From the NCBI GenBank assembly GCA_041651195.1, contig JBAZJR010000001.1, forward strand, positions 71,601 to 135,600: a stretch of DNA of 64,000 nucleotides, written 5' to 3'. The notes beneath the pieces were generated by a model. That model was not told the origin of the DNA. It was given only the letters and a program-made list of their open reading frames with translations, and made no database searches. The DNA is from Patescibacteria group bacterium. Lineage in GTDB: Bacteria > Patescibacteriota > Patescibacteriia > Patescibacteriales > UBA12465. This document shows positions 29,459 through 57,465 of this stretch, piece after piece; position 1 is the first letter of the stretch; every line of letters begins with the position of its first letter. Made by a program: the position numbers and the translations under genes.

Positions 29459-29460
29459 AT

Positions 29461-29856
29461 ATGTTTGAAAAATTTGTTTTTTCCGCCAAACAAATTGAAA
29501 AATATTTTTCCTCGGCGGCTAAAGATTTTAGCACGGCTCTAAAAGGAGAAGCGGATGTGCGTTTCGTTTTTTGTTATAATTGTCTTTTGAAATTAGCGAT
29601 TGTCGTTTGCGCTAAAAATAATTTGCGAGTCAAGGCTAGGCGCGGGCATCATATTGTTTTAATTGAAAAGATGGCCGGATTTTTAGAAGACAAAGAGATA
29701 GAAATTATTGCCCAAGAAATGCGCGCCAAGAGAAATAGAGATTTGTATGATGGCGGGATTTTAATAAGTAAAAAAGACGCAGAAATGTATCTAGAATTTG
29801 TTTCAAATTTAATTAACAGAGTTGAAAAATATCTAGGTTTTAATAAATTATTTTAA
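29461..29856 (+). CDS. HEPN-domain-like protein (toxin-like partner of MNT)
   Basis: 131 aa, all-helical in appearance, starting 2 nt after the MNT stop. The R-N-x-x-x-Y-type motif ([11 protein letters not shown]) is as in PF05168-type HEPN proteins. The assignment rests on context and a short motif. Confidence 0.5.
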
Positions 29857-29860
29857 CATT

Positions 29861-32978: not shown

Positions 32979-32979
32979 T

Positions 32980-41681: not shown

Positions 41682-42719
41682 ATGATGTCAGAAAAAAATC
41701 ACAATTTATTTCCAGAAAAGAAGAGAGAGAAAGAGATCCCAGCCGTCAGGTACCGAGTTATCCGTCACGAAGAAAGGACCAATACTGGCGAATTAACCGC
41801 GGACGGGATCAAGAATGCCCAACGACAAGGCCAGAGTTTGAAGACTACAGCCGAAGTAGTTAAAGGATATGCCAGTCAGGAAAAGAGTGATCGTGCTTAT
41901 AAGACTGTGGACACGATCAGCGGAGCGTCAGGCATCAAGTCTCCGTTGACCGAAAAAGCTTATGAGACCCGCCGTCGCCCTGGTTTGTTTTATGATCTAG
42001 CCGGCCCATTAATGCCGCGGATAGACGGTTATTCTAAGTTGATTAATGAAGCGGTCAAGAAGGATTATCCTGATTTTGATCCTCAGTCCAGCGATCCGAA
42101 ATGGGGCAAGATTCGAAAAGAATATCAGCCGATTGGGGTTAAGAAACTGATTGTCGATGATCAAGAGCTGTCCCATATCTTTGCTATGGGCGCGGCGCAT
42201 GAATTGGCTGATATGATGAAAATCGGTGAGCGCTATGCCGGTTATCGAGATAGTAAAGCCCAGGCCGGGGAGGGGAAAGGTGTAGAGAGGGATATAGTCA
42301 TGATGGAAGGTACGCACGGCGGATTCTTGGAGAACCTGTTAAAGAAGGCTTTGGTCAGGGTTGATGGTCAAGGGCAGGAGAAGGTCGGGTTTGATACTTT
42401 TACTGATGTTAAAGGCAACCCAGAATTAGAACCAGCTCTTGGCGGGATGTTCAAACCGGGAGAGTCTTTCGATATCGTCGAAAAAATCGGTCAGGAAAAA
42501 TCGTCCCGTTTGCCCGTAGAGTTCGAAGACCCCTCTCGTTTTTCTGGTGAGAAATGTTTTTTGGATCTAGATCGGGTCAAGGCTTTGGACGGGCAGTTTA
42601 GCACCTATTACGAAAAATTCCAAGCTTGGCAGAAAGATAAGGGCCAGGAGGCTGAGCTATTAACTTGTTTAGAAGGATTGCAGGCCGATTTTGCCAAGCA
42701 ATATGAAGGAAGTAAGTAA
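41682..42719 (+). CDS. Histidine-phosphatase (phosphoglycerate-mutase-like) superfamily protein
   Basis: RYRVIRHEERTNTGELTADGIKNAQRQG is an RHG-type motif with the nucleophile His. SDRAYKTVDTI provides the second Arg. MMEGTHGGFLENLL provides the distal His. The family-level call rests on motifs. Confidence 0.6.
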   Translation: MMSEKNHNLFPEKKREKEIPAVRYRVIRHEERTNTGELTADGIKNAQRQGQSLKTTAEVVKGYASQEKSDRAYKTVDTISGASGIKSPLTEKAYETRRRPGLFYDLAGPLMPRIDGYSKLINEAVKKDYPDFDPQSSDPKWGKIRKEYQPIGVKKLIVDDQELSHIFAMGAAHELADMMKIGERYAGYRDSKAQAGEGKGVERDIVMMEGTHGGFLENLLKKALVRVDGQGQEKVGFDTFTDVKGNPELEPALGGMFKPGESFDIVEKIGQEKSSRLPVEFEDPSRFSGEKCFLDLDRVKALDGQFSTYYEKFQAWQKDKGQEAELLTCLEGLQADFAKQYEGSK

Positions 42720-42770: not shown

Positions 42771-44219
42771 ATGACAGAAATCCAGCAAGATAAATTCTTT
42801 CGCCGGCAGTTTAAGAAGTCATGGCTGACCCAAGGCTTGAATGGCGTCCCCTTGTATCTGAGCACGACGGCGGAGAGCGGCCACCGGTTGAAAAAATACC
42901 TTGGTTTCGATTACGCCCCCTTTCTGTTCTATTATAAAGATAATTATGCCGAGGGCAGTTATGCGGCTGCCGATTTTGTGAAGCTGTGGAAAATAGTTCG
43001 CTCCCGGATCAAGCGCGATAAAGGATACTTAGAGAAAATTCGAGCCAAGTATGATAAGGTGTTTGCCCGTTACGATTTTTGGCTAAAACAGATCAAGAAC
43101 ACTAAATTAGCAGACCAGTCAGACGCCTGGCTGAAAGAAAATCTACAGCAGTCCGGAAACTGTCTAGTCGACGCCATGAATCTTTCGCATGTTATTGAGG
43201 TGATTAGCGCTGGTTTGGAGTCGGACTTGAAAGCGCGGCTGACGGCCAGGTATCAGGAGTTAAAGATCAATAAGATTTTGGCCTCTTTATCTAATGTTTA
43301 TAAGCCATCTTTTATTAATCTGGAAGAAAAAGATCTCCTAAGGATAAAATCCGCTCCGCTCCGCTCCCGGCCGGCTCTCCTGGCCCGGCACAGCAAAAAA
43401 TATTATTGGTTTAATACTAATTATACCGGCTCTAAGTTGGCCGACGAGCAATACTTTCTGAAGCGCCTTAAGAATTTAACCGAGACCTCAACTCCCGTCG
43501 TAGCTGACCCCGCCGATTTTATCAAGCTGGCGGAAGATCAGGCGATCAAGGGAATGATCAAGATGATCGGCCTGACCGCCGACTGGCAGGATCAACGGAA
43601 AGTTAATATCTTCAAAGCTATTTATCACGCGGAGATCTTAGTTAAGGAGTTCAGCCGTCGGACTGGGATGCCTATGGCGGATCTACGTTATGTAGCCGTT
43701 AAAGAGATGCTCGGTTTTACCAAAATTAAAAATTTTAAAAAATTATCAAGAGAATTGGCGGCCAGACGGCAGGGCTGTTTCCAGTGGATGGCTGTCGGCC
43801 GGGAAATAATCGTTGCAGGAGCTTTATTCAGACGATTAGAAAAAAACTATCATTCCATCCGGACGCGAGTTGATTCAGTTCCTCTGTCTATAGAAGGGAC
43901 GACTGCCAATAGCGGCCGGGTGGTCGGCACGGTTGTGGTCTGTAAATCGATAAAAGATTTAACTAAGGTCAGAAAGGGAGATATCTTAGTAACCTCTATG
44001 ACCCGACCAGAATATCTGGCTGGCATCAAGAAGGCCGCCGCTTTGATTACGGATGAAGGCGGCATCACTTGTCATGCCGCTATCGTCTCTCGGGAGTTGC
44101 GCCTGCCCTGTATCATCGGGACTAAGATCGCGACCAAGGCGTTACAGACCGGCGACTTCGTGGAAGTAAACGCCAATCACGGCGTAGTCAAACTCTTAAA
44201 GAATAGTAAGCAAGCTTAG
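42771..44219 (+). CDS. Swivel phosphohistidine domain protein, paralogue 7 of 10
   Basis: C-terminus: GTTANSGRVVGTV...GDILVTSMTRPEYLAGIKKAAALITDEGGITCHAAIVSRELRLPCIIGT. His codon at 44073-44075. N-terminal motifs: KKSWLTQGLNGVPLYLSTTAE, KKYYWFNTNYTG and DWQDQRKV. Confidence 0.85.
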   Translation: MTEIQQDKFFRRQFKKSWLTQGLNGVPLYLSTTAESGHRLKKYLGFDYAPFLFYYKDNYAEGSYAAADFVKLWKIVRSRIKRDKGYLEKIRAKYDKVFARYDFWLKQIKNTKLADQSDAWLKENLQQSGNCLVDAMNLSHVIEVISAGLESDLKARLTARYQELKINKILASLSNVYKPSFINLEEKDLLRIKSAPLRSRPALLARHSKKYYWFNTNYTGSKLADEQYFLKRLKNLTETSTPVVADPADFIKLAEDQAIKGMIKMIGLTADWQDQRKVNIFKAIYHAEILVKEFSRRTGMPMADLRYVAVKEMLGFTKIKNFKKLSRELAARRQGCFQWMAVGREIIVAGALFRRLEKNYHSIRTRVDSVPLSIEGTTANSGRVVGTVVVCKSIKDLTKVRKGDILVTSMTRPEYLAGIKKAAALITDEGGITCHAAIVSRELRLPCIIGTKIATKALQTGDFVEVNANHGVVKLLKNSKQA

Positions 44220-44231: not shown

Positions 44232-45665
44232 ATGACTAACAACGATTACCAACTATTTAAACAATATCTAAAGCGCGATTGGTACGTCCAAGGCTTCAGC
44301 GCCGTTCCTCTATTTTTGTCGACCGCCGCTATCAGCGGCACCTTCATGAAAAAATATCTCGGTTTTGGTTACCGGCACTTCTTGTTCAGTTACCATAACG
44401 GTTATGGCGAGATGGCTTATGATCCGGCTGACCTTAAGCATGTCTGGCTGATCGTCAAGAAAAAATTATCGGTCAATCCTGGTTATTTAAAAGAAGTGAA
44501 GGCTCTATATTATCAGAATTTGCGCCGTTTTCAGCCATTTTTACAGAAAGTCCAACATGCTGACCTGACTAGATTAAACGATCGGGAAATAATTAAGTTG
44601 TTTAAAGAATTAATCCGCGCTCAAGTAGATTATGTCGGAGTAGCGCATATTATTGATGCGATTGGCGCCGAATTAGAAAAAGAATTCCAAGACGCTCTCC
44701 ATAAAGAATTGCCGTTGCTTTCTCCGGCTAAGTTCAATGAAGTCTTCGCTCGGCTGATCACCCCATCCAAGATGTCTTTTGTCAGTCAAGAAGAGAAGGA
44801 GCTCTCAGCTATCCCGAGAGGCATTAAGAACGCAGCGGCTCTCCGCCGCCACGCTGCCAAATATTTTTGGCTGCAGAATAGTTATGCTGGTCCGAAGTCA
44901 TTGACTGTTGCTGACTTTCGAGCCAAACTTATTAATTTAAAAAAGGAAAAACAGAGATTTCGAATTGATCAGTGCCAAACTCTACCATATAGATTCAGCC
45001 GCTCCTTGCGGCAGATGGTCGGAATCATCGATTATTGCGCGGTCTGGCAGGACGAAAGAAAAGCGCTCTTATTTCGGAATATCGCTTACGCTGGCCGCGT
45101 GGTCGAGGAAATTGCTCGGCGTTTAGATTCTGACGTGACGGATTTCTATTATATCAGCCTGACTGAAGTCGAACGGCTAGAATCAATCCAGGATTTGCAG
45201 TCCAAGATAAAGACGTTAAAAGAGCGCCGTAGCGGCTGCTTGGTCATCATCCAAGGGAAAACCGATAAGGTGCTAGCCGGCGTCGGTTATCGCCGCTTGA
45301 TGAAAGCCGGCCATAGCCTATTGAAAGATAAGGGGCAAGAAGGCCGAGATATCCATGGCACCGTGGCTAATGTCGGTACGGCGCGCGGCCGCGTCCGTAT
45401 CATCAGGAACATGGAATCCTTGAAAAAATTCCAAAGCGGGGATGTCCTGATCGCTTCTATGACCCGGCCGGAGTATATGGCGGCAATCAAGAAGGCGGCC
45501 GCGATCATTACGGACGAAGGCGGCCTAACTTGTCACGCGGCGATCATCGCTCGGGAACTTGATATCCCGACTATTATCGGCACGAAGATAGCCACCCGGG
45601 TCTTGAAAGACGGTGATTTGGTAGAGGTCCGGGCTAACCATGGGATCGTTAGGATTTTAAATTAG
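44232..45665 (+). CDS. Swivel phosphohistidine domain protein, paralogue 8 of 10 (closest to paralogue 7)
   Basis: C-terminus: GTVANVGTARGRV...GDVLIASMTRPEYMAAIKKAAAIITDEGGLTCHAAIIARELDIPTIIGT. His codon at 45534-45536. N-terminal motifs: KRDWYVQGFSAVPLFLSTAAI, AKYFWLQNSYAG and VWQDERKA. Confidence 0.85.
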   Translation: MTNNDYQLFKQYLKRDWYVQGFSAVPLFLSTAAISGTFMKKYLGFGYRHFLFSYHNGYGEMAYDPADLKHVWLIVKKKLSVNPGYLKEVKALYYQNLRRFQPFLQKVQHADLTRLNDREIIKLFKELIRAQVDYVGVAHIIDAIGAELEKEFQDALHKELPLLSPAKFNEVFARLITPSKMSFVSQEEKELSAIPRGIKNAAALRRHAAKYFWLQNSYAGPKSLTVADFRAKLINLKKEKQRFRIDQCQTLPYRFSRSLRQMVGIIDYCAVWQDERKALLFRNIAYAGRVVEEIARRLDSDVTDFYYISLTEVERLESIQDLQSKIKTLKERRSGCLVIIQGKTDKVLAGVGYRRLMKAGHSLLKDKGQEGRDIHGTVANVGTARGRVRIIRNMESLKKFQSGDVLIASMTRPEYMAAIKKAAAIITDEGGLTCHAAIIARELDIPTIIGTKIATRVLKDGDLVEVRANHGIVRILN

Positions 45666-45675: not shown

Positions 45676-47121
45676 ATGCCAGGTAAATTTAATCCCATCA
45701 TCTCGCCATCCGCCAAATTTTCTTTCGCCGACTGTTTAAAGAGCCTGCGGACTGAAAAGGAGTGGATTATTCAAGAGGCACCAGCGGCGCCTTGGTATTG
45801 GTGGCTCTCTTCCACAGCCTGGATCCAAGGCTTGGCTCAAGCCGGTTATTCGCCGGGAAATTTTGCTACTTACTGTGTCGGCGAAGTCGGCACTTTAGTC
45901 GTTAATCGTATAATTTTTTTAAGATTAGCCAAAAAATTAATAAAAAAAGAATTGGCTGGCCAGTCGGTTATAAGAAGATGGTTAGCGGAGTGGCAGGCGA
46001 TCGATAAACGATATAATATCCTGGTCAGCCGGATCCTTAATACGAAATTAGATGGTTTACCAGAGAAAAAATTTTTACAACTTTTTGAAAATTTTTGTGC
46101 CCTTTATTTTGCCGTCGAATCTTTACCGCTCGCTAATGAGTTCCTTATCCCTTACTCCGACGAATTATTGGGACGCCTGCATGTCCAATATCCGGACCAG
46201 ACCGAAACTCTGGCTCGTCTCATTGCGCCGTGCCAAAGATCTTTTATCCAGATCGAAGAAGACGAATTAAAACAGATCGCCCGGCTTGCCGGTCAGAAAA
46301 GGGAAGAAGCCCTGACCCGGCATTTAAAAAAATGGCTTTTTATCAATGGCGGTTACGACGGCCCCCATTCCGTGACCAGATGGCAATTGCAAACTAAGTT
46401 AAAAAAGATAAAAAATCATCAAGCAGCCAAGCCGACCAAGATCGGTTCGGTATCTTTCTTGGATCAAGAAACTAAGATCATATTGCGGCTGATCAGCCTA
46501 GTCTCCGGCTGGAAAGATCAAAGGAAGAGGAATAATATGATCGGCTCGGTCGTTTTGGATCATTTTGCTAGGAGTTTTTCCTCTCGTTACCAGATTGATT
46601 ATGATTTAATTCGATATGCCGTCCCGGGAGAATATCGCTTATTAGCCAAAGCTGATAAAAAGTTCTTAAAGATCCTGAGACAGAGGATCAAGGGCGGTAC
46701 GGCCTGGGCGATCAGCGGGAAGCGATATTCCGGTATATTTTCTGAGATTGAATATCGCCAGTTGAGAAGAGTAATCGGTGCCATGAAGAAGCCGCAGACA
46801 ATGCTAAAAGGGTTGGCCGCCAGCCCGGGGCGGGTCCGTGGCTGGATCAGGGTTATCCATAATCCGGCGCGGGAAAAATTTGCGGCTGGTAGTATCCTTT
46901 TGACTTCGATGACCCGGCCAGAATTTGTCCCCTTGATCAAGAAAGCTAAAGCCGTCCTCTGCGATGAAGGCGGGTTATTATCCCACGCGGCCATCGTCAG
47001 CCGCGAATTCAAAATCCCTTGCATCGTCGGCCTACACCAGGCCATGGCCAGTCTGCGAGACGGAGATTGGGTGGAAGTGGACGCTAATCATGGCCTGGTT
47101 AAGATTTTAAAACATAATTGA
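45676..47121 (+). CDS. Swivel phosphohistidine domain protein, paralogue 9 of 10
   Basis: C-terminus: GLAASPGRVRGWI...GSILLTSMTRPEFVPLIKKAKAVLCDEGGLLSHAAIVSREFKIPCIVGL. His codon at 46984-46986. N-terminal motifs: EKEWIIQ, KKWLFINGGYDG and GWKDQRKR. Confidence 0.85.
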   Translation: MPGKFNPIISPSAKFSFADCLKSLRTEKEWIIQEAPAAPWYWWLSSTAWIQGLAQAGYSPGNFATYCVGEVGTLVVNRIIFLRLAKKLIKKELAGQSVIRRWLAEWQAIDKRYNILVSRILNTKLDGLPEKKFLQLFENFCALYFAVESLPLANEFLIPYSDELLGRLHVQYPDQTETLARLIAPCQRSFIQIEEDELKQIARLAGQKREEALTRHLKKWLFINGGYDGPHSVTRWQLQTKLKKIKNHQAAKPTKIGSVSFLDQETKIILRLISLVSGWKDQRKRNNMIGSVVLDHFARSFSSRYQIDYDLIRYAVPGEYRLLAKADKKFLKILRQRIKGGTAWAISGKRYSGIFSEIEYRQLRRVIGAMKKPQTMLKGLAASPGRVRGWIRVIHNPAREKFAAGSILLTSMTRPEFVPLIKKAKAVLCDEGGLLSHAAIVSREFKIPCIVGLHQAMASLRDGDWVEVDANHGLVKILKHN

Positions 47122-47128: not shown

Positions 47129-48667
47129 ATGGCTTCTCTAATAACTCTAAGCTCTATCAAATCGCAGAAATGGTACCGCCAACAGACGGAAGCTACGCCT
47201 TATTTCATCTATCTGGCTTGTCGCGGCTGCGTCGCTTATTTTAAAAGTCAGGATAAGGTCCTCTGGTATTGCGATCCAGAAGAAGATCGGGCTTATTTGG
47301 AACAGAATTATATTCGGGCTTTAGCCGAGAAACATTTGGCTCAGGAAAAAAATCACTTAAATTTTTCTCAGCGCCTTCATGCGGAGTGGCTTAATAACAT
47401 ACAATTAAAAAATCAGCGCTTATTTTCTAAAATAAATCAGGTTGATGTTAGTCGGATTAGCGATGCCAAGCTTCTCAGTTTTAATCATTCCTTGGGACGG
47501 CAGTCATATGTCATGTGGCTTCGTTTCTTTATGGATATTTTTGATATTGATGCCGAGAGCCTGATTGAACAGGAGCTCATCAAAAAGCAGGTAAACCTGA
47601 CGGCTGATGAAAAGAATACCTTAACTATGCCCGAGAAACTGATGGTCAATCAAGATCAGGAATTGGCACTGCTCAAGATCGCCCGGTTTGTAAAAATTGA
47701 CGCTCAGTGTATCCATTTATTAAATCAGATCCAGACAGCAGACACGATTCATCGTTTGAGATTACAGCCGCGGTTATTATCGGAAATTGAGTCTTATATT
47801 AAAAAATACCATTGGATCAGGAATAGTTGGGCCCACACTTCTATCATTAGCGTGTTTGATGTCGTCGACCAAGTGAAGCAGATCGTTTCTGGGTCACGAG
47901 ATATTGTGAGCGAAATTAGGCAGCTGGAATCTTATGGGAAGAATTTGCGGAAGCAAAAAAAGGTAATCATTAAAAAACATCGTTTAGCCGGCTGGCTAGC
48001 TCGGATGTTCGAGATGTTCGCCTTAATGACTCTCTGGCGCGATGAGCGCAAAGCGCAGATGCAGCAATTGAATTACTATCTCCAGCTGGTCGGCACGGAA
48101 ATAGCCAAGCGCAGCCGACTAGATTGGGATAGCATTAAGGTTTATGATCCCTTAAGCGTCAAGACTATCCCTATAAAAGCTCAAGATTTAGTTCGTCGCG
48201 CCAAGTTATTAAAAAATAATAAATTAATGTATTGGGACGGACAGGCTGTCCGTCACCTTGATTTCCAAACCAGTAAAAGATTCGTGCCTGCCCTGGAAGA
48301 CACCTTTTCCGTCCAGATGACAGAAGTCCGCGGACTGATCGCCTGTCCGGGTAAGGTCAAGGGGGAAGTGGTTGTAATTAATAAGAAAAGTGAATTCAGT
48401 AAGATGATGCCGGGTAAGATTCTGGTGACGACCATGACCCGGCCGGACTACTTGCCTTTAATGAAACAGGCGGCCGCTGTCGTGACCGATGAAGGCGGGA
48501 TCACCTCGCATGCCGCGATCGTTTCCCGGGAACTAAAGATCCCCTGCATCATCGGCACCCAGGTCGCCACTAAAGTTTTAAAAGATGGTTACCAGGTAGA
48601 AGTTAATGCTAACCATGGAGTCGTTTTAGTCTTAGAAAGGGCGAATAAAAGCTATAATAAAAATTAG
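47129..48667 (+). CDS. Swivel phosphohistidine domain protein, paralogue 10 of 10
   Basis: C-terminus: GLIACPGKVKGEV...GKILVTTMTRPDYLPLMKQAAAVVTDEGGITSHAAIVSRELKIPCIIGT. His codon at 48509-48511. N-terminal motifs: SQKWYRQ, KKYHWIRNSWAH and LWRDERKA. Confidence 0.85.
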   Translation: MASLITLSSIKSQKWYRQQTEATPYFIYLACRGCVAYFKSQDKVLWYCDPEEDRAYLEQNYIRALAEKHLAQEKNHLNFSQRLHAEWLNNIQLKNQRLFSKINQVDVSRISDAKLLSFNHSLGRQSYVMWLRFFMDIFDIDAESLIEQELIKKQVNLTADEKNTLTMPEKLMVNQDQELALLKIARFVKIDAQCIHLLNQIQTADTIHRLRLQPRLLSEIESYIKKYHWIRNSWAHTSIISVFDVVDQVKQIVSGSRDIVSEIRQLESYGKNLRKQKKVIIKKHRLAGWLARMFEMFALMTLWRDERKAQMQQLNYYLQLVGTEIAKRSRLDWDSIKVYDPLSVKTIPIKAQDLVRRAKLLKNNKLMYWDGQAVRHLDFQTSKRFVPALEDTFSVQMTEVRGLIACPGKVKGEVVVINKKSEFSKMMPGKILVTTMTRPDYLPLMKQAAAVVTDEGGITSHAAIVSRELKIPCIIGTQVATKVLKDGYQVEVNANHGVVLVLERANKSYNKN

Positions 48668-48678
48668 ACTAGTATTAG

Positions 48679-48707
48679 TTGATATTTTCACTAAAAATTT
48701 ATATAAT
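48679..48707 (+). promoter_or_regulatory. Internal sigma-70-like promoter candidate
   Basis: TTGATA (48679-48684), a 17-nt spacer, then a consensus TATAAT (48702-48707), 19 nt upstream of the ATG at 48727. Confidence 0.5.
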
Positions 48708-48726
48708 ACCCTAATAATTTACAAAT

Positions 48727-49689
48727 ATGCTAGGAGAATTATTTGAAACGCCAGATGCAAAAAACCTAAATAATGATGATCCGGTTGAACAGATTTTCCA
48801 TTCTGGCTCTGTGGCTAAAAACAGTAGAGAATTGGCCTATACGGATAAATTTGCTAATTTTATCCAAACTCATCCGGATTTTTTACTTAAGACGAAAAAA
48901 GCGGCTGACGCTTTGTTCGATTTACCGGTTGATCAACCGGTTCCCATCCAAGAGTTAGATAACGTCAAGATAGAATATATCGACTGGCATGGTAAAGCAG
49001 AAAGGAAATACTATAAGGTCACGGCTGATGATGGTCAAGAATTCTTCCTTAAAGTTGGAGTTTTATCTAATAAGAACAGCATCCACGACGAGAATAGTGC
49101 GGAAGATCTCCTGTCTATGCAAAAAGTTAAAGAAGCTTTATGTGGATTCACGGCTTTCAAGGTCAGCGCTATTGACTACCAGATCGGCTATAAAGATAAT
49201 AAACGCACCTATTCTTTAGCCTCTTTCGACGAACGAACGAGAAATTCGATCGGTAAACAGATGAATAATCTAAATGATAAAATATACAAAGAAAATAATC
49301 AGAATTTCGTGATACAGAGGTTACTAAAATTATCAAGAACCAGATATGATCTTAGAAAACTATATTATGCGAGCCTCTACTTACCATCGGTTCGTACACG
49401 GACAGCTGAAATTGTCCCACGGCTAGAAGAAATAGAAAAGGAAATAGAGACGGTGAAAAATCAGATATATGAAGCTGCTTCTGGTCATGACACCATTGAA
49501 ATTGTTGATTCAGTATTGGCTAGAGATGAATTATCGTCAAAATATCTCCACTTGCGCAGTTATCTTGACTCTCAAGAACTCGCCAATGACTTCCATGAGG
49601 ATCAAATGTCTTACGATAAATTGACAGATGAAGCCTTGGTTTTTGATATCAGAAAAGGTAGATATTTCGATATAGAAGATGCGTTTTAA
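48727..49689 (+). CDS. Hypothetical protein, tentatively protein-kinase-like / aminoglycoside-phosphotransferase-like fold
   Basis: 320 aa in an AT-rich gene. Weak kinase-like landmarks occur in order: KYYKVTADDGQEFFLKVG (beta-3 Lys-like), LLSMQKVKE (helix-C Glu-like), DFHEDQMSYD (HxD-like) and LVFDI (DFG-like Asp). This is speculative. Confidence 0.3.
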   Translation: MLGELFETPDAKNLNNDDPVEQIFHSGSVAKNSRELAYTDKFANFIQTHPDFLLKTKKAADALFDLPVDQPVPIQELDNVKIEYIDWHGKAERKYYKVTADDGQEFFLKVGVLSNKNSIHDENSAEDLLSMQKVKEALCGFTAFKVSAIDYQIGYKDNKRTYSLASFDERTRNSIGKQMNNLNDKIYKENNQNFVIQRLLKLSRTRYDLRKLYYASLYLPSVRTRTAEIVPRLEEIEKEIETVKNQIYEAASGHDTIEIVDSVLARDELSSKYLHLRSYLDSQELANDFHEDQMSYDKLTDEALVFDIRKGRYFDIEDAF

Positions 49690-49776
49690 AGTAGATTACA
49701 AACAGTTAGTAAGGACTGATAAAAAAGTAGAAAAGTATAATTTTTTGGATAGGCTCTGCAATAAAAATTAAAATAT

Positions 49777-50718
49777 ATGTTTTTCATCAAATTTTTTAAA
49801 GACATCACTAAAAAAAACGTTGCCGAAGCCGGCGGCAAAGGTGCTTCGCTCGGCGAAATGACGGGCGCCAAGATCCCGGTCCCGCCCGGCTTTGTGATCT
49901 TAGCCGACGCTTTCTATCGTTTTCTGGAAGAGACTGACCTGACTCAGGCCGTTCAAGCGGTTTTAGATAAGGTCAATTATAAGGACATCAATGCTGTCGA
50001 CGGTGCCTCTGTTCAGATCCGGGATATGATCCTTAAGGCGTCGATGCCGAAAGATTTGGAAAAAGATATCAAGACTGATTTTAAGAAATTAAAGACAAAA
50101 TTCGTCGCTGTCCGCTCAAGCGCGACCGCGGAAGATTCTTCGTCCGCTTCCTGGGCCGGGGAATTGGAAACTTATCTGAACACGACTGAAAAAACTCTCT
50201 TGCTCAATGTCAAGAAATGCTGGTCTTCGCTTTTTACGCCGCGCGCCATTTTTTATCGTCATGAGAAAAAATTATTAAAGACTAAAGTCGGCGTCGCGGT
50301 CGTAGTCCAGGAAATGGTCGCCTCGGAAATTTCTGGTATCGCCTTTACGGTCCATCCGGTCACCCAGGATAAGAACCAGATGATCATCGAGGCTGGCTAT
50401 GGCTTAGGCGAAGCGATCGTTTCGGGTTCGATCACGCCGGATTCTTATGTCCTGGACAAGCGTGATTACTCGTTCATCGATATCAACGTGGCGAACCAGG
50501 AAAGGCAGATTATCAAAGGAGCATCGGGCGGCGTCAAATGGGCGCCGGTCGCGCGCGCCAGCCGGGAAAAGCAGAAATTGACCGGGCGGCAGATAGTAGA
50601 ATTAGCTAAGATCTGCCTGGGCATCGAGAAGCATTATAAGTTCCCCTGCGATATAGAATGGGCCTATGTTAAGGGGAAATTCTATATTACCCAGAGCCGG
50701 CCGATCACCACTCTCTGA
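49777..50718 (+). CDS. Stand-alone PEP/pyruvate-binding-type ATP-grasp (PPDK_N) nucleotide-binding domain protein
   Basis: 313 aa. KNVAEAGGKGASLGEMTGAKIPVPPGFVI is the signature start of the PPDK_N domain of PEP synthase, PPDK and rifampin phosphotransferase. VAVRSSATAEDSSSASWAGELETYLN, VAVVVQEMV and DIEWAYVKGKFYITQSRPITTL complete the domain. The ORF stops exactly where those enzymes continue into other domains. Confidence 0.85.
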   Translation: MFFIKFFKDITKKNVAEAGGKGASLGEMTGAKIPVPPGFVILADAFYRFLEETDLTQAVQAVLDKVNYKDINAVDGASVQIRDMILKASMPKDLEKDIKTDFKKLKTKFVAVRSSATAEDSSSASWAGELETYLNTTEKTLLLNVKKCWSSLFTPRAIFYRHEKKLLKTKVGVAVVVQEMVASEISGIAFTVHPVTQDKNQMIIEAGYGLGEAIVSGSITPDSYVLDKRDYSFIDINVANQERQIIKGASGGVKWAPVARASREKQKLTGRQIVELAKICLGIEKHYKFPCDIEWAYVKGKFYITQSRPITTL

Positions 50719-50839: not shown

Positions 50840-52366
50840 ATGTTCGATTACTTGCAACAATTCAATAGCTTATCCAAAGATCTGCGCGACCGGATTTCTT
50901 CGCCGTCCGTGATGGCGGCGGTAACGGAATTGGAAGGTAAATATAAGGTGGATCTAGCGATGACGGTGATGAAAGTTATGATTAAGAGCCTTACCGTCAA
51001 GGATCTGCCGTCTTTTTTTATCAGTGACGCTAACTTATCTCAGGTAACGGCGGAAAGTTTGGCGCGTGAACTGAAAGAAAAAGTATTTTCTGTCGTTGCC
51101 GATCATTTAGGGCTCACGGCTGAGATACGTGCCTTGGACTTGGATCGAGATATCGCGGCTTTGATCCGGGAGGCCGGCTTATCCCTGGCCAGCGATAATC
51201 TGGTCAGCCGTTTAAAAAATATCTTAGCGACCTATCTGCGGGGAGTGCGGAGCAAAATAGACACCCGTAATTCTTTAGCCAAAGACGTTAAGGTCGGCGG
51301 TTTGAATCTGAGTCCGACGGAAATCGATCGCGTCCTGCAGATCTGTGATAGCGGCAAATTGCAGTCCGCCGCCCAGGCTTCTCCCGCTCCGCAATCGAAA
51401 CCCGCAGCGTTTACGCTGCCTCCGGAAGAATATGACTTGAAGCGCGCTTTGTCGAGCGGCCAAGTCAAGCCTGTCGTCAAGACCGAATCCGACCATAAGC
51501 CCGAATCTAGCCGCCAGACCGAACCCGGCCGAAAGATAGAGCCTAGCTATCCGGCCGGATCACCAGCGAAAGGCCAGAAAATGTCATCTGATAAATTAGA
51601 TACTGCTCATGAGATAAGCGCTCCGAAAGACCAGTTAGACTTAGCAGCGCCGATTCCGCCGCTGGAATTAAAAGCGCCTACTAGAACTCAGGCATTCGAG
51701 ACAGCGAAAACCCCAGATGCGCCGAAGGCTCCGGAAACAGCTAAGGTCTCGGACGCGTCGAAGGCTTCAGAGACGGCGAAGGTTTTAGAGACGGCGAAAG
51801 CTCCGGTTATTTCTAAGACCACGCCTGTCGCGCCTGTTCCGTCTGCCACCCAGATAGCCCAGATAAACCAAGCTTTGGCGCCTTCTAAATCTCCAGTCTT
51901 GAGTCCATCGCCCAAAGTTGCTGCGCAGACGGCTCAGCCGCTGAAGCCGAATATCGTCCAGCGTCCCGCCGCGATCCGGCGTCCGGTTGTCGCCCCGACG
52001 GCCGCTAAGCCGCGGATGCATGATATCAAGCCGGTGCCCAAGGTGATGGGGCCGATCGAGGAATTGCAATTTTTGGATCCCGTCAATTTCCGGCGCCTAG
52101 GCAAGACTCCGGCGGAAACGACGGCAAAGATATTCGCTAAGATCAAATTGTTGGAAAAAGACGGGTATGATAAAATGGTCGCAGGCGTCCGTGCTTGGCG
52201 GCAGAGTCCGGTCAACCGCTTGTATTTGCGCTTAGGGCAGGAAGCGATTGCCAAAGGAATAACCCTGAAAGACGCGGTGGCCGCCCGCCAAGGCGCTAGC
52301 CAGGAATATTTGAGCCTGGAAGAGGTCGAGGCGGTTTTAAATTTGAATAGCAAGCTAGTCTTTTGA
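50840..52366 (+). CDS. Hypothetical protein with central Pro/Ala/Lys-rich ETAK repeat region (first gene of second T4SS-like half-locus)
   Basis: 508 aa. Imperfect tandem repeats FETAKTPDAPKAPETAKVSDASKASETAKVLETAKAPV lie at about 51695-51806, within a long low-complexity P/A/K/S segment. The stop abuts the PrgI-like gene. Confidence 0.6.
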   Translation: MFDYLQQFNSLSKDLRDRISSPSVMAAVTELEGKYKVDLAMTVMKVMIKSLTVKDLPSFFISDANLSQVTAESLARELKEKVFSVVADHLGLTAEIRALDLDRDIAALIREAGLSLASDNLVSRLKNILATYLRGVRSKIDTRNSLAKDVKVGGLNLSPTEIDRVLQICDSGKLQSAAQASPAPQSKPAAFTLPPEEYDLKRALSSGQVKPVVKTESDHKPESSRQTEPGRKIEPSYPAGSPAKGQKMSSDKLDTAHEISAPKDQLDLAAPIPPLELKAPTRTQAFETAKTPDAPKAPETAKVSDASKASETAKVLETAKAPVISKTTPVAPVPSATQIAQINQALAPSKSPVLSPSPKVAAQTAQPLKPNIVQRPAAIRRPVVAPTAAKPRMHDIKPVPKVMGPIEELQFLDPVNFRRLGKTPAETTAKIFAKIKLLEKDGYDKMVAGVRAWRQSPVNRLYLRLGQEAIAKGITLKDAVAARQGASQEYLSLEEVEAVLNLNSKLVF

Positions 52367-52368
52367 TT

Positions 52369-52788
52369 ATGCAGCAGTTTACCGTCCCCCAATTCATCGA
52401 CGTTGAGAGTCAGATCATCGGGCCGATTACGACCCGCCAATTTATAATTCTTTTGGTGGCGGCGATCATTATCGGGCTGAGCTATAAGCTCTTTGATTTC
52501 AGTTTATTCGTGACTGTCGCGGTCGTTGTCTTGGCGATCGCCGCGACTTTCGCCTTTGTTAAGATCAACGGTCGGCCGTTCCATCTTTTTGTGCTGAATA
52601 CCATCCAGACCTGGCGCCGTCCTGGCCTGCGCGTCTGGAATAATCAGGCCGTCATGAGCGAGCATACGGAGAAAACCGCCGCCGTAACGCCGTCTTACCA
52701 GCCAGCCGCGCCTAAAGTTTATAAAAAATCACGTTTAGCCGAATTAGCCCTCATTGTCGATACGAAGGGGCGCTATAAGGGAGAATAG
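52369..52788 (+). CDS. PrgI/TcpE-like (VirB3-analogue) small membrane protein
   Basis: The ATG at 52369 is preferred. MQQFTVPQFIDVESQIIGPITTRQFIILLVAAIIIGLSY is followed by a second TM (FSLFVTVAVVVLAIAATFAF). This is the pattern of PrgI-family proteins that sit upstream of VirB4 in Gram-positive-type T4SS. Confidence 0.6.
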   Translation: MQQFTVPQFIDVESQIIGPITTRQFIILLVAAIIIGLSYKLFDFSLFVTVAVVVLAIAATFAFVKINGRPFHLFVLNTIQTWRRPGLRVWNNQAVMSEHTEKTAAVTPSYQPAAPKVYKKSRLAELALIVDTKGRYKGE

Positions 52789-52789
52789 T

Positions 52790-53470
52790 ATGGCGAAAAA
52801 AAACCTGGCTAAAAATAAGATCGGCAGCTTTACCCAGCAGTATCTGAACATCGCCGAGATCAAGGATAATACCGTCGTGATGAAGGATGGGACTTTGCGC
52901 GTGGTCTTATTGGTGTCCAGCATAAATTTCGCGCTCAAGAGCGAAGACGAGCAGAACGCCGTGATCGATTCATATATCCGCTTCCTGAACAATATCAGCT
53001 TCACGGTCCAGATCGTCATCCAGTCGCGCGAATTAAATATCGATAACTATTTGCAATATCTGAAGGAGAAGGAGAAAGAGCAGACTAATAAGCTCCTGAA
53101 AGTGCAGACGGCCGACTATATCGAGTATATCCGGGAGCTGACCTCTCTAGGCAAGATCATGAATAAGCGTTTTTATGTCATCGTGCCCTATGATCCGCTT
53201 ACTGACAAGCATAAGGGCTTTTTCTCTTTGCTCGGCGAAGCGATGCGCCCGGCGACCATCATCAAGCTGAAAGAGAAGACTTTCAAGAATTATCAAGAGA
53301 TGATGGAGCGCCGCGTGGAGAGCGTCGCCGGCGGGCTGGAATCGATGGGCGTCGCCGTCGCGCGTCTGGATACGCAGAGTTTGATTGAATTATATTATAA
53401 GACCTATAATCCGGAGACTTCGCCTAATCAGGATCTGGCGGATCTCGACAAGATCCGGGTGGAGAGATAG
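52790..53470 (+). CDS. VirB4 N-terminal-domain-like protein (separate ORF)
   Basis: The ATG at 52790 is preceded by AAGGGAGA. FTQQYLNIAEIKDNTVVMKDGTLRVVLLVSSINFALKSEDEQNAVIDSYIRFLNNISFTVQIVIQS resembles the extreme N-terminus of TcpF/PrgJ/VirB4-type ATPases. Confidence 0.5.
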   Translation: MAKKNLAKNKIGSFTQQYLNIAEIKDNTVVMKDGTLRVVLLVSSINFALKSEDEQNAVIDSYIRFLNNISFTVQIVIQSRELNIDNYLQYLKEKEKEQTNKLLKVQTADYIEYIRELTSLGKIMNKRFYVIVPYDPLTDKHKGFFSLLGEAMRPATIIKLKEKTFKNYQEMMERRVESVAGGLESMGVAVARLDTQSLIELYYKTYNPETSPNQDLADLDKIRVER

Positions 53471-53517
53471 ACGCTCGCTGCGGCAAATTGCCGCCAGAGC
53501 GAAGAATAAAATTCATT

Positions 53518-55431
53518 ATGATCGATTTTAACAAGGAAGACCAACAGAATAAGATAAAGCTTAACGCGCCGGTCACTTTGCGGCCGCCCGGTGCTGCTCC
53601 GCTGATCGAAGCCGATCCGGAGTTGACGCGGGAAGTGATCGAAGAAGAGAAGGCTTTCCGCCGCGGCGTCTTATCCGTCCGCGATATTATCGCGCCAGCC
53701 AGCCTCAAAGTCGAGGCCAGTTTCCTGCATCTCGGCAATAAGTTCGTCCGGACGATTTTTGTGATCAGCTATCCGCGCTATATTTCCGTCGGCTGGTTCG
53801 CCCCGATCATTAATTTGAACGTCACTTTCGACGTCTCGATGTTCTTTTATCCGGTCAAGAGCTTTATCATTTTGAAACAGCTGAAGAATAAGGTCGGCGC
53901 CTTGGAAGCCCAGATCGTCTCGGACGCGGAAAAAGGCGCGGCCCGTGATCCGCTCCGGGAAACCGCCCTCCGCGATATCGAGTATCTCCGCGACGCCTTG
54001 ACGCAGGGGACGGAGAAATTTTTCCAGTTTTCCCTGTATGTTACTCTTTACGCCGATAATCTGGCCGACCTCGATCGCCTATCCGATCAGATCGAAGATA
54101 TCTTCGGTTCGCGCCTGGTTTATTCCCGCCGCGTTTATTATCAGTCCGAGCAGGGCTTCAACTCGACCTTGCCCTTAGGCGATGACGAATTATATATTAC
54201 CTTCAACATGAATTCTTCGCCGATCGCTTCGTCTTTCCCGTTTATTTCCAGCGAATTGACCAGCGACCAGGGCATCCTATACGGCATTAATCGCCATAAT
54301 AATAGCTTGATCCTCTTTGAACGCTTTTCTTTGCAGAACGCCAATTCCGTCGTTTTTGCGACTTCCGGCGCCGGGAAGAGCTATGCTGTGAAGTTGGAGA
54401 TCCTGCGCTCGCTCATGCTCGGCACCGACGTGATTGTCATCGATCCGGAATATGAATATAAACATCTGGCGGAAGCGGTCGGCGGCACCTATATAAATAT
54501 TTCTTTGTCTTCGGAAAATAAGATCAATCCTTTCGACTTGCCTCGTTCGATCGGCGGGGAGGCGAAACCGAAAGACATCATCCGGAGCGCCGTCATAACG
54601 CTCAAAGGCTTGGTCCGGCTGATGCTTGGCAACTTGACCTATGATGAGGATTCCATCGTCGACCGGGCGCTCCTCGAAACTTACGCCAAGAAGGATATTA
54701 CGCCGGACTCGGATCTTTCTAAGATCGAGGCGCCGATCATGTCTGATTTCGAACAGATCTTGGAAGGGATGGAGGGCGGTTCGGACCTGGCTTTGCGTCT
54801 GCGTAAATTCACCGTCGGGACTTTCGCCGGTCTCCTGAACAATCAGACTAACGTCGAGATGAATAACCAGCTGGTCTGTTTCTCGGTCCGCGACTTGGAA
54901 GATGAATTGCGGCCGATCGCGATCTATACGATCGTCAATTATATCTGGAACGTCGTCCGGAGCGAGATGAAGAAACGGATTTTGGTCATTGACGAAGCCT
55001 GGTGGATGATGCAGCACGAAGACAGCGCGAAATTCATCTTCGCTCTCGTCAAGCGCTGTCGCAAATATTATCTCGGCGTAACGACGATCACCCAGGATGT
55101 CAACGATTTCTTGACTTCGCCCTACGGCCAGGCCATCGTCACCAACTCTTCCATGCAGCTCCTATTCAAGCAGTCGCCGGCCGCGATCGACCTGGTGCAG
55201 AAGACTTTCTTATTGACCGAAGGCGAAAAATATCTGCTCTTGGAATGCGGTGTCGGGGAAGGGATCTTCTTCGCGGGCAACAAGCACGTGGCCATGAAGG
55301 CAGTCGCTTCCTATACCGAAGACCAGCTCATTACTTCTGATCCGCGCCAACTCCTTGAATTAGAAGAAGCGAAGAAAGAATTTGATGAAAGCCAGGCGCA
55401 GCAGGGGGATGCCAGCGGCCTGAAGCTTTAA
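53518..55431 (+). CDS. virB4: VirB4/TraE-family type IV secretion ATPase (middle + ATPase domains)
   Basis: Walker A is ATSGAGKSYAVK (GAGKS at 54367-54381). Walker B is ILVIDEAWWMM. YPRYISVGWF is a mid-domain motif. The ATG at 53518 is preferred over the TTG at 53488. Confidence 0.85.
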   Translation: MIDFNKEDQQNKIKLNAPVTLRPPGAAPLIEADPELTREVIEEEKAFRRGVLSVRDIIAPASLKVEASFLHLGNKFVRTIFVISYPRYISVGWFAPIINLNVTFDVSMFFYPVKSFIILKQLKNKVGALEAQIVSDAEKGAARDPLRETALRDIEYLRDALTQGTEKFFQFSLYVTLYADNLADLDRLSDQIEDIFGSRLVYSRRVYYQSEQGFNSTLPLGDDELYITFNMNSSPIASSFPFISSELTSDQGILYGINRHNNSLILFERFSLQNANSVVFATSGAGKSYAVKLEILRSLMLGTDVIVIDPEYEYKHLAEAVGGTYINISLSSENKINPFDLPRSIGGEAKPKDIIRSAVITLKGLVRLMLGNLTYDEDSIVDRALLETYAKKDITPDSDLSKIEAPIMSDFEQILEGMEGGSDLALRLRKFTVGTFAGLLNNQTNVEMNNQLVCFSVRDLEDELRPIAIYTIVNYIWNVVRSEMKKRILVIDEAWWMMQHEDSAKFIFALVKRCRKYYLGVTTITQDVNDFLTSPYGQAIVTNSSMQLLFKQSPAAIDLVQKTFLLTEGEKYLLLECGVGEGIFFAGNKHVAMKAVASYTEDQLITSDPRQLLELEEAKKEFDESQAQQGDASGLKL

Positions 55432-55477
55432 GCCAGTTTTATAATAATATCCTGCCTGGAGCGGGACTTATAAACAT

Positions 55478-56101
55478 ATGCAAACTAACCGCAGGAATCT
55501 AGGCCTCCTAGTCATCATCATCGGATTGATCATCTTGGCTTTGGTGGTCTATTTTACTTTTTTCCGGTCGGAGGAGGCTCCCTCGGAAACGCCGGCTGGC
55601 GAAACTGTGACCGCGACGCCGCAGCTGGAAACCAGCCCCTTGATCGGTACTACGACGCCGAGCGATCGGCCGGTGAACCGCCAGACCTACGACCTTTCTA
55701 AAGAGGCGCCGCATCAGTTCAATATCAACGATTTAACTAAGATCGCGGAATCTTTCGCCGCCCGCTTCGGTTCTTTCTCCAGCCAATCCGATTATAATAA
55801 TTTTACCGATCTGCGGATGTTTATGACTGAGAGCCTGCGAGATTGGGTCGACGGCTATGTCCAGAAACTCAAGGCCGAAAGATCAAGCGCCACTTATTAT
55901 GGCATCACGACGAAAGCCCTGGTAAGCGACGTGAAAAGTTTCGACGACCAGGCGGGAAGCGCCGAAGTCTTCGTGACGACGGAGCGCAGCGAGAGCACAG
56001 AGCAAATCGGCGGCGGCACGCCTTATCGGCAGGACCTGCGCTTGAAGTTCAAGAAAGTTAACGGCGACTGGCTGGTCGATGAAGTCTATTGGCAGAAATA
56101 A
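55478..56101 (+). CDS. Bitopic membrane protein, possible VirB8/PrgL-like (NTF2-like C-terminal domain)
   Basis: Single N-terminal TM (LGLLVIIIGLIILALVVYFTFF). The C-terminal ~140 aa end in LRLKFKKVNGDWLVDEVYWQK, reminiscent of NTF2-like folds. It lies immediately downstream of virB4. The call rests on context and topology. Confidence 0.35.
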   Translation: MQTNRRNLGLLVIIIGLIILALVVYFTFFRSEEAPSETPAGETVTATPQLETSPLIGTTTPSDRPVNRQTYDLSKEAPHQFNINDLTKIAESFAARFGSFSSQSDYNNFTDLRMFMTESLRDWVDGYVQKLKAERSSATYYGITTKALVSDVKSFDDQAGSAEVFVTTERSESTEQIGGGTPYRQDLRLKFKKVNGDWLVDEVYWQK

Positions 56102-56115
56102 CAGTTAGCAAAACC

Positions 56116-57465
56116 ATGGCTAATCCCTTGAAAACCATCTTTACTTGCGCCAATTGCGACGCCCAATTCCCGAAATGGAGTGGGCGTTGTTTGGAGTGCG
56201 GCGCCTGGGGGACTTTGACCGAACGCGCTTTAGACAGCAAAGAAGCCAGCCGGGAAGCGGTCAAGAAATTAGGCGGCGCGGAGGTAATCGATCTAGCAGG
56301 CATCAAAGATTCATCTTTGTCGCGCCTGAAGACGAATATCAGCGAGATCGATCGGGTTTTGGGCGGCGGCTTGGTGCCCGGATCGCTCGTGTTACTCAGC
56401 GGCGAACCGGGTATTGGTAAGTCCACTTTAGTCGCGCAGATCGCGACGGCGTTAGGGAAAGATCGCCAGACGATCTATGTGAGCGGCGAAGAGTCGGCCG
56501 CCCAGATCAAAGATCGCCTGAATCGTTTAGGCTGCGATCTGAGCCGCCTAAAGTTCATCTCGGAAACTAATGTTGAGAAGATATTTACGGCTGGCGTTAA
56601 GGCTAAGGCCGATGTGATGATTATTGATTCCATCCAGACCGTTTATTCGGCGCTTATCCCGTCGGAAGCGGGCAGTATTTCCCAGATCCGGGCGGCGACT
56701 GTCCGTTTTCTAGAACTGGCTAAGCAGAACGGATTAGCGATCATCCTGATTGGCCATATCACCAAGGACGGCCAGGTCGCCGGTCCGAAATCCTTGGAAC
56801 ATATCGTCGATACTGTCCTATATTTAGAGAATGAATCTACTAATAATTATTGCTTGCTTCGGGCGACTAAGAACCGTTTCGGTTCCGTCAACGAATTAGG
56901 GGTTTTAGAGATGACCGGAGCCGGCTTTCAGGAAGTGAAGAATCCCAGCCAGATCTTTATCGAAACTGATCAGTCGGATATTTCTGGTTCGGTCATCAGC
57001 TGCCTGATCGAAGGGACGCGGCCTTTCCTGGCCGACCTGCAGGCGCTCGTGACTAAGACGGTCTTTGGTTATCCGCAGAGGAAGGCCAGCGGTTTTGACC
57101 TTAATCGGCTCCAGGTTTTGAGCGCGGTGATCACCAAGCGGACGAAAATAAACCTGACAGCGCAAGATATAATCCTGAACGTGGTCGGCGGCCTGAAGAT
57201 TAGCGACCCGGCGCTTGACCTCGCCGCCTGCGCGGCGATCATCAGCTCGCAATTGAATAAGAATTTCGATCGGCACACGATCGTCCTCGGGGAAGTCGGC
57301 CTGGGCGCGGAAGTGCGCAATGTTTTTAAATTAGAGCAGCGGCTTCAGGAAGCGGAGCGCCTGGGCTTTACTACGGCGATCGTCCCATCCGCGGCCGTGA
57401 AAGGCGGGAATTTAAAATTAATTAAAGTAAAGAATCTGGGCGAATTGGTGGATATTATAAAGTAA
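56116..57465 (+). CDS. radA: DNA repair protein RadA/Sms
   Basis: Zinc finger CANCDAQFPKWSGRCLECGAWGT, Walker A GEPGIGKST, the KNRFG motif (ATKNRFGSVNE) and a Lon-like C-terminus. The ATG at 56116 is preferred over the TTG at 56089. Confidence 0.9.
   Translation: MANPLKTIFTCANCDAQFPKWSGRCLECGAWGTLTERALDSKEASREAVKKLGGAEVIDLAGIKDSSLSRLKTNISEIDRVLGGGLVPGSLVLLSGEPGIGKSTLVAQIATALGKDRQTIYVSGEESAAQIKDRLNRLGCDLSRLKFISETNVEKIFTAGVKAKADVMIIDSIQTVYSALIPSEAGSISQIRAATVRFLELAKQNGLAIILIGHITKDGQVAGPKSLEHIVDTVLYLENESTNNYCLLRATKNRFGSVNELGVLEMTGAGFQEVKNPSQIFIETDQSDISGSVISCLIEGTRPFLADLQALVTKTVFGYPQRKASGFDLNRLQVLSAVITKRTKINLTAQDIILNVVGGLKISDPALDLAACAAIISSQLNKNFDRHTIVLGEVGLGAEVRNVFKLEQRLQEAERLGFTTAIVPSAAVKGGNLKLIKVKNLGELVDIIK

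Follow-up and report, generated by a model that had tools for sequence, protein, structure and literature searches.

Rifampin phosphotransferase (RPH) carries an ATP-grasp domain, an acceptor domain, and a C-terminal swivel domain in a single chain of 865 residues. In HpeHI of Rhodococcus, CreHI of Corynebacterium, and the phenylphosphate synthase PpsAB of Thauera and Aromatoleum, the ATP-grasp (here "grasp") is a stand-alone protein and the swivel resides in a separate subunit (PMC12167813). In the case of HpeI and HpeH, both components are required, the H581Q substitution abolishes activity, and HpeH has been modelled as a rifampin (RIF)-binding domain joined to a swivel (PMC12167813). The precedents for substrates are hydroxyls of small molecules, namely rifampin, phenols, and a benzylic alcohol (PMC12167813, PMC4844700). 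Here we describe a locus in a 64-kb window of DNA (64,000 nucleotides; positions 71,601 to 135,600 of contig JBAZJR010000001.1, assembly GCA_041651195.1) from a Patescibacteria group bacterium, in which a stand-alone grasp gene accompanies ten paralogous acceptor-swivel genes. The grasp probably supplies ATP binding in a two-component dikinase of the RPH type that has many partners, as one hub with many spokes. Positions given below are those of the window, and the grasp gene is as follows.

49777-50718, plus strand: stand-alone ATP-grasp (PPDK_N) subunit of 313 residues, PF01326; proposed shared ATP-charging hub

Like HpeHI, CreHI, and PpsAB, the locus has a separate grasp and partners with an N-terminal substrate-binding domain and a C-terminal swivel, and the genes are adjacent and co-oriented. 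Those systems are 1:1 pairs, whereas here there is one grasp to ten acceptors (4-12 in relatives). The acceptor N-domain is also shorter (~370 residues), the hosts are Patescibacteria and DPANN archaea rather than aromatic-degrading free-living bacteria, and genes for a HAD and a histidine phosphatase lie within the array, with no carboxylase or catabolic genes nearby. With RPH the locus shares the same three modules, in the same order when they are joined (grasp, acceptor domain, C-terminal swivel). However, RPH is a single chain with one acceptor domain, whereas at this locus the grasp is a chain of its own and the acceptor half exists in many copies; the NCBIfam models of RPH match the grasp part only, at 277 bits against a cut-off of 999 (NF041857) and 197 against 1700 (NF000283). 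With phosphoenolpyruvate (PEP) synthase and PPDK it has in common a homologous grasp, which gives the best sequence match, a swivel, and a predicted His-mediated transfer of the β-phosphoryl group, but it differs from them in lacking the TIM barrel (PF02896), in consisting of separate proteins, and in the fold of the acceptor. The prodigiosin ligases PigC and RedH have an RPH-like grasp and swivel, and their NCBIfam models match the grasp, at 241 bits where the cut-off is 1300, as well as the swivel; they are, in contrast, single-chain enzymes of pigment biosynthesis, and no biosynthetic cluster is found here. All of the NCBIfam matches are sub-threshold and partial. Because no PEP/pyruvate TIM-barrel domain is present in the window, the enzyme type is assigned, from its domain content, as RPH-like and not PEP synthase. 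The first-pass annotation, which had called the protein PEP-synthase-type, is corrected on this point.

The Stand-alone ATP-grasp Protein

The ORF at 49777-50718 had been read as the nucleotide-binding half of a larger enzyme, ending exactly at a domain boundary, and the comparisons bear this out. All of the hallmark motifs that had been quoted are present: KNVAEAGGKGASLGEM at residues 12-27, VAVRSSATAEDSSSASWAGELETYLN at residues 110-135, and the C-terminal DIEWAY...FYITQSRPITTL at residues 292-313. Residues 17-312 align with positions 3-311 of the 328 in the Pfam profile PF01326 (PPDK_N) with an E-value of 1.7e-97, so that the domain is complete. The grasp aligns end to end with the solved structures of PEP synthase (8a8e, E 2.8e-70) and RPH (5fbs, E 4.4e-58); the alignment on RPH spans residues 6-316, and the last residue of the grasp, Leu313, pairs with residue 362 of PEP synthase 8a8e and residue 316 of RPH-Lm. 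Since the ATP-grasp of RPH is defined as residues 1-314 (PMC4844700), the ORF stops at the domain boundary. Residues K21, R113, T132, E294, Q306, and R308 are identical to K22, R117, T136, E297, Q309, and R311 of RPH, which are known from mutagenesis or structure to hold ATP and Mg (PMC4844700). An AlphaFold2 (AF2) model of the grasp (pLDDT 83, pTM 0.85) superimposes on the isolated ATP-binding domain of RPH (5hv6_A) with TM scores of 0.81/0.82 over 313 columns, on full RPH with a query-normalized TM score (TMq) of 0.84-0.85, and on PEP synthase 2ols with a TMq of 0.83. The best Foldseek E-value of the model (3e-27) was obtained with HpeI (9goj), which is naturally a stand-alone ATP-grasp. No other PPDK_N ORF occurs in the 64-kb window.

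A search of 5.8 billion proteins recovered an identical protein from a Patescibacteria metagenome-assembled genome (MAG) and more than 120 further clusters, formed at 90% identity, that are 74-92% identical to the grasp. Nearly all members are 312-313 residues long, with a few of up to 338 residues, and PF01326 is their sole domain. An alignment of 30 sequences has ~130 invariant positions, which take in the entire ATP site and also SRPITTL at the C terminus, and the conservation of the grasp across genomes equals that of VirB4 and TraC. The supposed orphan belongs, in other words, to a large and tightly conserved family of stand-alone proteins, which the databases annotate as "pyruvate, water dikinase." In a locus from Kuenenbacteria (L048, 6964-10960), a genuine PEP synthase of 790 residues, composed of a grasp, a central swivel, and a TIM barrel, lies directly upstream of a stand-alone grasp of 319 residues. 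The PEP synthase is 38.5% identical to the grasp of the window, and the stand-alone protein is 69.7% identical. Judged from sequence comparison, true PEP synthases and stand-alone grasps are separate, coexisting lineages, and the grasp gene is neither an orphan nor a remnant.

Grasps on contigs labelled Nanoarchaeia, Woesearchaeota, Aenigmatarchaeota, or Methanosarcinales (L034, L080, L081, L087, and L091) are 58-72% identical to the Patescibacteria protein, which suggests either inter-domain transfer between the candidate phyla radiation (CPR) and DPANN or mis-binning. The taxon labels of some MAG records are implausible, and many contigs labelled "uncultured Gammaproteobacteria bacterium" are plainly Patescibacteria-like in content.

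An Array of Ten Acceptor-Swivel Paralogues

The array upstream of the grasp is larger than the first-pass annotation had implied. Ten swivel paralogues of 477-512 residues lie between 31040 and 48667, all on the plus strand.

31040-32563, plus strand: acceptor-swivel paralogue 1, 507 residues; PF00391 at residues 429-498, E 5.6e-22; catalytic His; K-D-L-R-N version of the acceptor motif
32893-34410, plus strand: acceptor-swivel paralogue 2, 505 residues; PF00391 E 7.9e-26; motif H-D-R-R-K; GGITCH
34415-35854, plus strand: acceptor-swivel paralogue 3, 479 residues; PF00391 E 3.6e-23; motif N-D-R-K-K; GGLTSH
35883-37409, plus strand: acceptor-swivel paralogue 4, 508 residues; PF00391 E 1.1e-23; motif W-Q-D-E-R-K
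37435-38892, plus strand: acceptor-swivel paralogue 5, 485 residues; PF00391 E 6.5e-26; motif I-Q-D-R-R-K
39579-41075, plus strand: acceptor-swivel paralogue 6, 498 residues; PF00391 E 2.8e-25; deviant motif M-R-N-R-R-V; His kept
42771-44219, plus strand: acceptor-swivel paralogue 7 (the one modelled), 482 residues; PF00391 E 1.5e-23
44232-45665, plus strand: acceptor-swivel paralogue 8, 477 residues; PF00391 E 7.7e-24; motif W-Q-D-E-R-K
45676-47121, plus strand: acceptor-swivel paralogue 9, 481 residues; PF00391 E 1.1e-22; motif W-K-D-Q-R-K
47129-48667, plus strand: acceptor-swivel paralogue 10, 512 residues; PF00391 E 1.4e-24; motif W-R-D-E-R-K

The genes are separated by 3-59 bp, apart from one gap of 330 bp and an insertion. 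Each protein comprises an unannotated N-terminal region of ~370-400 residues and a C-terminal PF00391 swivel (E 1e-22 to 1e-26). The phospho-His motif GG-x-(T/S/L)-(C/S)-H-AAI is kept in all ten, with an invariant His, and the D-x-R-K motif of the N-terminal region is kept in nine; the 39579 protein has N-R-R-V in its place, and its second phosphotransfer may be altered or lost. The two regions differ widely in conservation, the mean pairwise identity among the ten paralogues being 48.9% for the swivel and 16.5% for the N-domain.

The 42771 protein was modelled with AF2 from an alignment of 68 sequences (pLDDT 91.8, pTM 0.90). In a Foldseek comparison of this model with the PDB the top four matches were RPH entries (5hv1, 5fbu, 5fbt, and 5fbs; E 5e-11 to 3e-10, 480-577 columns, TMq 0.42-0.49), and two more RPH entries came next. 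RPH is the sole protein in the PDB that matches the acceptor protein over its full length; all other significant matches cover essentially the swivel only. A profile of the acceptor family aligns with RPH residues 640-866 (E 2.6e-27), and the most conserved motif of the N-domain, W-Q-D-E-R-K, falls on Y665-R666-E667-Y-P-K670 of RPH. Arg666 and Glu667 of RPH are critical for the second phosphotransfer, and Lys670 is part of the phosphate network (PMC4844700). The N-domain of the acceptors was thus found to be homologous to the RIF-binding domain of RPH, with a sequence identity of ~14% and a moderate similarity of fold, and the paralogues are predicted, from the model and the profile alignment, to correspond to the RIF-binding-domain and swivel part of RPH, just as HpeH is reported to do (PMC12167813). 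The acceptor-domain family is large, with 5006 clusters at 50% identity (E <= 1e-3), or 750 at E <= 1e-30.

Linkage, Fusions, and Rates of Change in Related Genomes

A scan that started from the grasp and used one genome per GTDB species yielded 80 loci from many Patescibacteria lineages and DPANN archaea; the array sizes of relatives are lower bounds, counted within +/-10 kb of the grasp. As the first-pass annotation had supposed, the grasp is linked with swivel paralogues: a swivel gene or a grasp-swivel fusion is present in 33 of the 37 loci that have at least 8 kb on both flanks. Two or more swivel genes occur in 30 of these 37, with up to 7 within 10 kb. Across the loci every swivel ORF lies on the same strand as the grasp (234/234), and 188 are upstream of it. 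The same picture is obtained from the acceptor side: of four homologues of the acceptors taken from other lineages, all four belong to arrays with a single PPDK_N gene. In locus L088 a grasp-swivel fusion comes after eleven swivel genes, and L089, L090, and L091 each have three to five swivel genes and one grasp of 282-328 residues.

Fusion of the gene to unrelated domains, with no link to swivels, had been named as a finding that would count against a hub; the fusions found carry swivel and acceptor modules. In L081 (813 residues) and L082 (828 residues) the order is grasp, acceptor domain, and swivel, as in RPH. Locus L067 (247-6228; JBBSVX010000052.1, the MAG of a DPANN archaeon) has one ORF, at least 1994 codons long and without any stop, that encodes in order acceptor-swivel, grasp, acceptor-swivel, acceptor-swivel, and acceptor, joined by Lys/Glu-rich linkers; it has the appearance of an entire array merged into a single chain. 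Protein P0244 (2309 residues) has four swivels and one PPDK_N domain, P0382 (2648 residues) has six swivels and one PPDK_N domain, and P0245 and P0248 are triple acceptor-swivel fusions.

P0241, P0244, P0245, P0248, and P0382 are multi-module proteins among the representatives of the acceptor family. A third giant, of 1836 residues, combines three swivels with a PTA_PTB (phosphotransacetylase-like) domain inside the chain, and separate PTA_PTB genes are found within the arrays of L088 and L091.

The two components change at different rates. In the nearest relatives the grasp is 89-90% identical, versus 61-80% for the acceptor orthologues. In farther relatives, whose grasp still shows 70-84% identity, acceptors that lie within reach match those of the window as paralogues only (<=34%), with the exception of one match of 63% in L012. 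As judged from these identities, this asymmetry would be the pattern expected of one constrained partner that docks with many changing ones.

Genes within and around the Array

Three other genes are embedded among the acceptor genes.

38896-39567, plus strand: protein of 223 residues; L002 and L009 have orthologues in the equivalent place
41065-41676, plus strand: HAD-family phosphatase, PF00702/PF13419 E ~5e-12, with HAD-IA subfamily matches
41682-42719, plus strand: divergent histidine-phosphatase-superfamily protein of 345 residues, with R28-H29 and R71 and a profile match to PGM-like phosphatases

In the 41682 protein R28-H29 and R71 are invariant among 23 homologues, of which 19 match PF00300, and the profile of the family matches PGM-like phosphatases in the PDB (E 9e-11). 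Homologues of the HAD protein lie near the grasp in 20 related loci and those of the histidine phosphatase in ~25. The two proteins probably dephosphorylate products or reset the phospho-His. The 38896 protein has no Pfam, NCBIfam, PHROG, or PADLOC match; a relative occurs in L064. In many loci a homologue of the histidine phosphatase directly adjoins a grasp gene, whether stand-alone or fused, and a HAD phosphatase is often there as well. The array of L088 has instead a low-molecular-weight phosphatase along with a methyltransferase and a hexapeptide transferase. Neither PADLOC nor PHROGs returned a match for the grasp, the acceptors, the accessory ORFs, or the AT-rich ORF described below, and an origin in a known defence system or a phage is unsupported.

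Between the last acceptor gene and the grasp lies a stretch of different character.

48640-49760, plus strand: lineage-specific AT-rich insertion (GC 37.3%) delimited by a break in homology, with an ORF at 48727-49689 (320 residues); not part of the system

The first-pass annotation had described the grasp as set apart from the array by an AT-rich ORF with its own promoter. The ORF and a strong, near-consensus promoter-like site (48679-48707, which scores 11/12) are both real, but the separation is secondary and is confined to this genome. Homology to L002, L008, L009, L010, and L011 breaks off near 48640 and is picked up again near 49760. The gap from the last acceptor to the grasp in those relatives is 12-265 bp (810 bp in L008), and it is ~836 bp in the farther L013 and L017. 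From the homology break and the short gaps in relatives it follows that the grasp was parted from the array by a recent, genome-specific insertion. This insertion, of ~1.1 kb with a GC content of 37.3% versus 47.8% for the window, is probably recent and specific to this genome by these comparisons. No homologue of its ORF turned up in 91 loci, and Pfam, NCBIfam, PADLOC, and PHROG gave it no match. Judged by the arrangement in relatives, the grasp is ancestrally the last gene of the array. The same annotation had suggested that the grasp might have a -10 element of its own; the letters TATAAT are indeed present at 49736-49741, but carry no evidential weight because there is no acceptable -35, the site was not scored by the promoter scan, and the region has 9 promoter-like sites versus 5.5 +/- 2.5 expected. 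No terminator-like site was found on the plus strand from the last acceptor gene to the grasp except a weak one in the inserted ORF.

Downstream of the grasp, gene order is kept in all close relatives (50840-57465 and the same region in L002-L031). It comprises a protein of 480-570 residues (43-61% identity, no family match), PrgI, a TraC-like protein, a VirB4/TraG-type ATPase, a protein of 210 residues, and RadA. This region is a cluster of the type IV secretion system (T4SS)-like or DNA-uptake type. The genes that immediately precede the first acceptor gene (26569-31012, same strand) encode members of the methyl cycle, namely a PfkB-family kinase, S-adenosylhomocysteine hydrolase, and S-adenosylmethionine (SAM) synthetase, as well as a MarR-nucleotidyltransferase fusion. 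Elsewhere in the window, at 3481-8842 on the minus strand, T4SS-pilin-domain genes (3481-4785 and 5658-6779) are interleaved with genes for subunits of pyruvate:ferredoxin oxidoreductase (4782-5654, TPP_enzyme_C; 6776-7957, POR_N; 8297-8842, POR gamma). Two long ORFs, of 2619 residues (14407-22266) and 876 residues (22981-25611), have no Pfam match.

Proposed Mechanism and Alternative Explanations

In the proposed mechanism the free grasp would bind Mg-ATP, and the C-terminal swivel of any one of the ten acceptor proteins would dock on it. The conserved His of the swivel (H435 in the 42771 protein) would attack the β-phosphate, with release of AMP, and the γ-phosphate would be lost as Pi. The phospho-His swivel would then return to its own N-terminal RIF-binding-domain-like acceptor domain, where the D-x-R-K motif, which aligns with R666-E667...K670 of RPH, would help in the transfer of the phosphate to the bound substrate. 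Since the acceptor domains are only ~16% identical, ten different substrates would be expected, and this low identity, together with the fast turnover of the acceptors, argues for many niche-dependent substrates. By analogy with the precedents these may be hydroxylated small molecules, either metabolites to be trapped or toxic substances to be inactivated. The first-pass annotation had argued that a free grasp depends on a His carrier supplied in trans, which would make it the hub of the array. The linkage in relatives, the fusions, the intact catalytic residues on both sides, and the RPH-like fold of the acceptor all agree with this; the principle of a free grasp that acts in trans is correct but was already known from HpeHI, CreHI, and PpsAB.

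Several points weigh against a shared hub. (i) The phosphotransfer steps are taken from homology to RPH and HpeHI, and we infer, rather than observe, that all ten acceptors share this one grasp. (ii) The acceptor N-domain has no sequence match to models of the HpeH/PpsA type among the NCBIfam families, PRK08296 matching the swivel only. (iii) Paralogue 39579 is without the Asp of the acceptor-site motif. (iv) In four of the 37 loci with full flanks, the 10 kb around the grasp contain no swivel gene. (v) The counts of grasp genes cover only the 64-kb window and +/-10 kb in relatives. (vi) Two phosphatases amid kinases would work to no purpose unless there are further steps in between.

The known two-component systems are 1:1 pairs and HpeH alone catalyses phosphotransfer between product and substrate, so the grasp might serve a single cognate acceptor or a few of them, such as the 47129 protein, whose gene originally adjoined it. 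The other acceptors would then be charged by another donor, act as ATP-independent transphosphorylases, or be inactive, and the deviation of the 39579 protein in its acceptor motif is in keeping with such a division. We nevertheless consider cognate-only pairing unlikely, because ten acceptors with intact His face one PPDK_N ORF in 64 kb, single polypeptides hold one grasp and three to six swivel modules, the swivels of all ten are far more conserved than their N-domains, and there is no alternative His-charging domain such as a PEP-binding TIM barrel.

Charging of many acceptors by the grasp might also serve targets other than small molecules, namely proteins or polymers, in a regulatory phosphorelay or in modification of the cell envelope or of glycans. 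Glucan water dikinase, PTS enzyme I, and, reportedly, Mycobacterium tuberculosis VadK are members of the superfamily that act on macromolecules or in regulation. The histidine-phosphatase-family gene within the array and the T4SS-like cluster immediately downstream in all relatives could be read in the same sense. However, the fold and motif of the acceptors match the small-molecule site of RPH, all characterized RPH-type and two-component members act on small molecules, and the downstream synteny may be coincidental; macromolecular targets are accordingly improbable.

A disassembled PEP synthase or PPDK, in which the grasp, a swivel, and a PEP/pyruvate-binding domain encoded elsewhere would make PEP for central carbon metabolism, would account for the best sequence matches of the grasp, which are PEP synthases (8a8e as given above; NF005057, 334 bits), and for the database label. 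This explanation is very hard to sustain. No C-terminal TIM barrel of PEP synthase occurs in the window or in 87 related loci apart from the genuine enzyme of L048, the swivel of the acceptors is C-terminal to the RPH-like domain and not central, and all NCBIfam PEP synthase scores are far under the curated cut-offs (334 versus 598). A search for a TIM-barrel partner with the C terminus of the L048 PEP synthase found none. Finally, a truncated, decaying duplicate of a full-length ppsA or ppdK, with disrupted ATP-binding residues, might end as exactly at a domain boundary as this ORF does, but the ATP site is intact, the 312-residue form is conserved, and the family described above (more than 120 clusters, nearly all of 312-313 residues, at 74-92% identity, with ~130 invariant positions) rules out a pseudogene or truncation for practical purposes.

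Implications

Split dikinases of the RPH type are known only as 1:1 pairs in aromatic catabolism, and the one-to-many arrangement around the shared grasp points to a modular widening of kinase substrate range, in which a single conserved ATP engine would be shared by a changeable set of specificity modules. No description of such CPR/DPANN arrays was found in the literature; the features not found described are the one-to-many gene ratio, the shorter acceptor-domain family, the concentration in Patescibacteria and DPANN, the recurrent phosphatase partners, and the giant multi-module fusions. Under the widespread labels "pyruvate, water dikinase" and "PEP-utilizing enzyme," gluconeogenic synthesis of PEP would be ascribed to these genomes in error. 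Multi-module fusions that occur in nature are ready constructs for biochemistry.

The array of ~19 kb amounts to ~2% of a genome of ~1 Mb (the complete relative CP066698.1 is 977 kb) in organisms of minimal metabolism, a share that suggests an important function, e.g. scavenging, detoxification, or host interaction. We put forward tentatively, and as somewhat short of an even chance when taken as a whole, a combinatorial hub-and-spoke system of Patescibacteria and DPANN. In such a system the slowly evolving grasp would charge a fast-evolving, genome-specific library of 4-12 acceptor-swivel modules, with dedicated HAD and histidine-phosphatase partners, for trapping scavenged metabolites or inactivating small molecules of hosts or competitors. 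If this is true, metabolically minimal episymbionts would possess a broad and interchangeable capacity driven by the strongly forward chemistry of ATP -> AMP + Pi.

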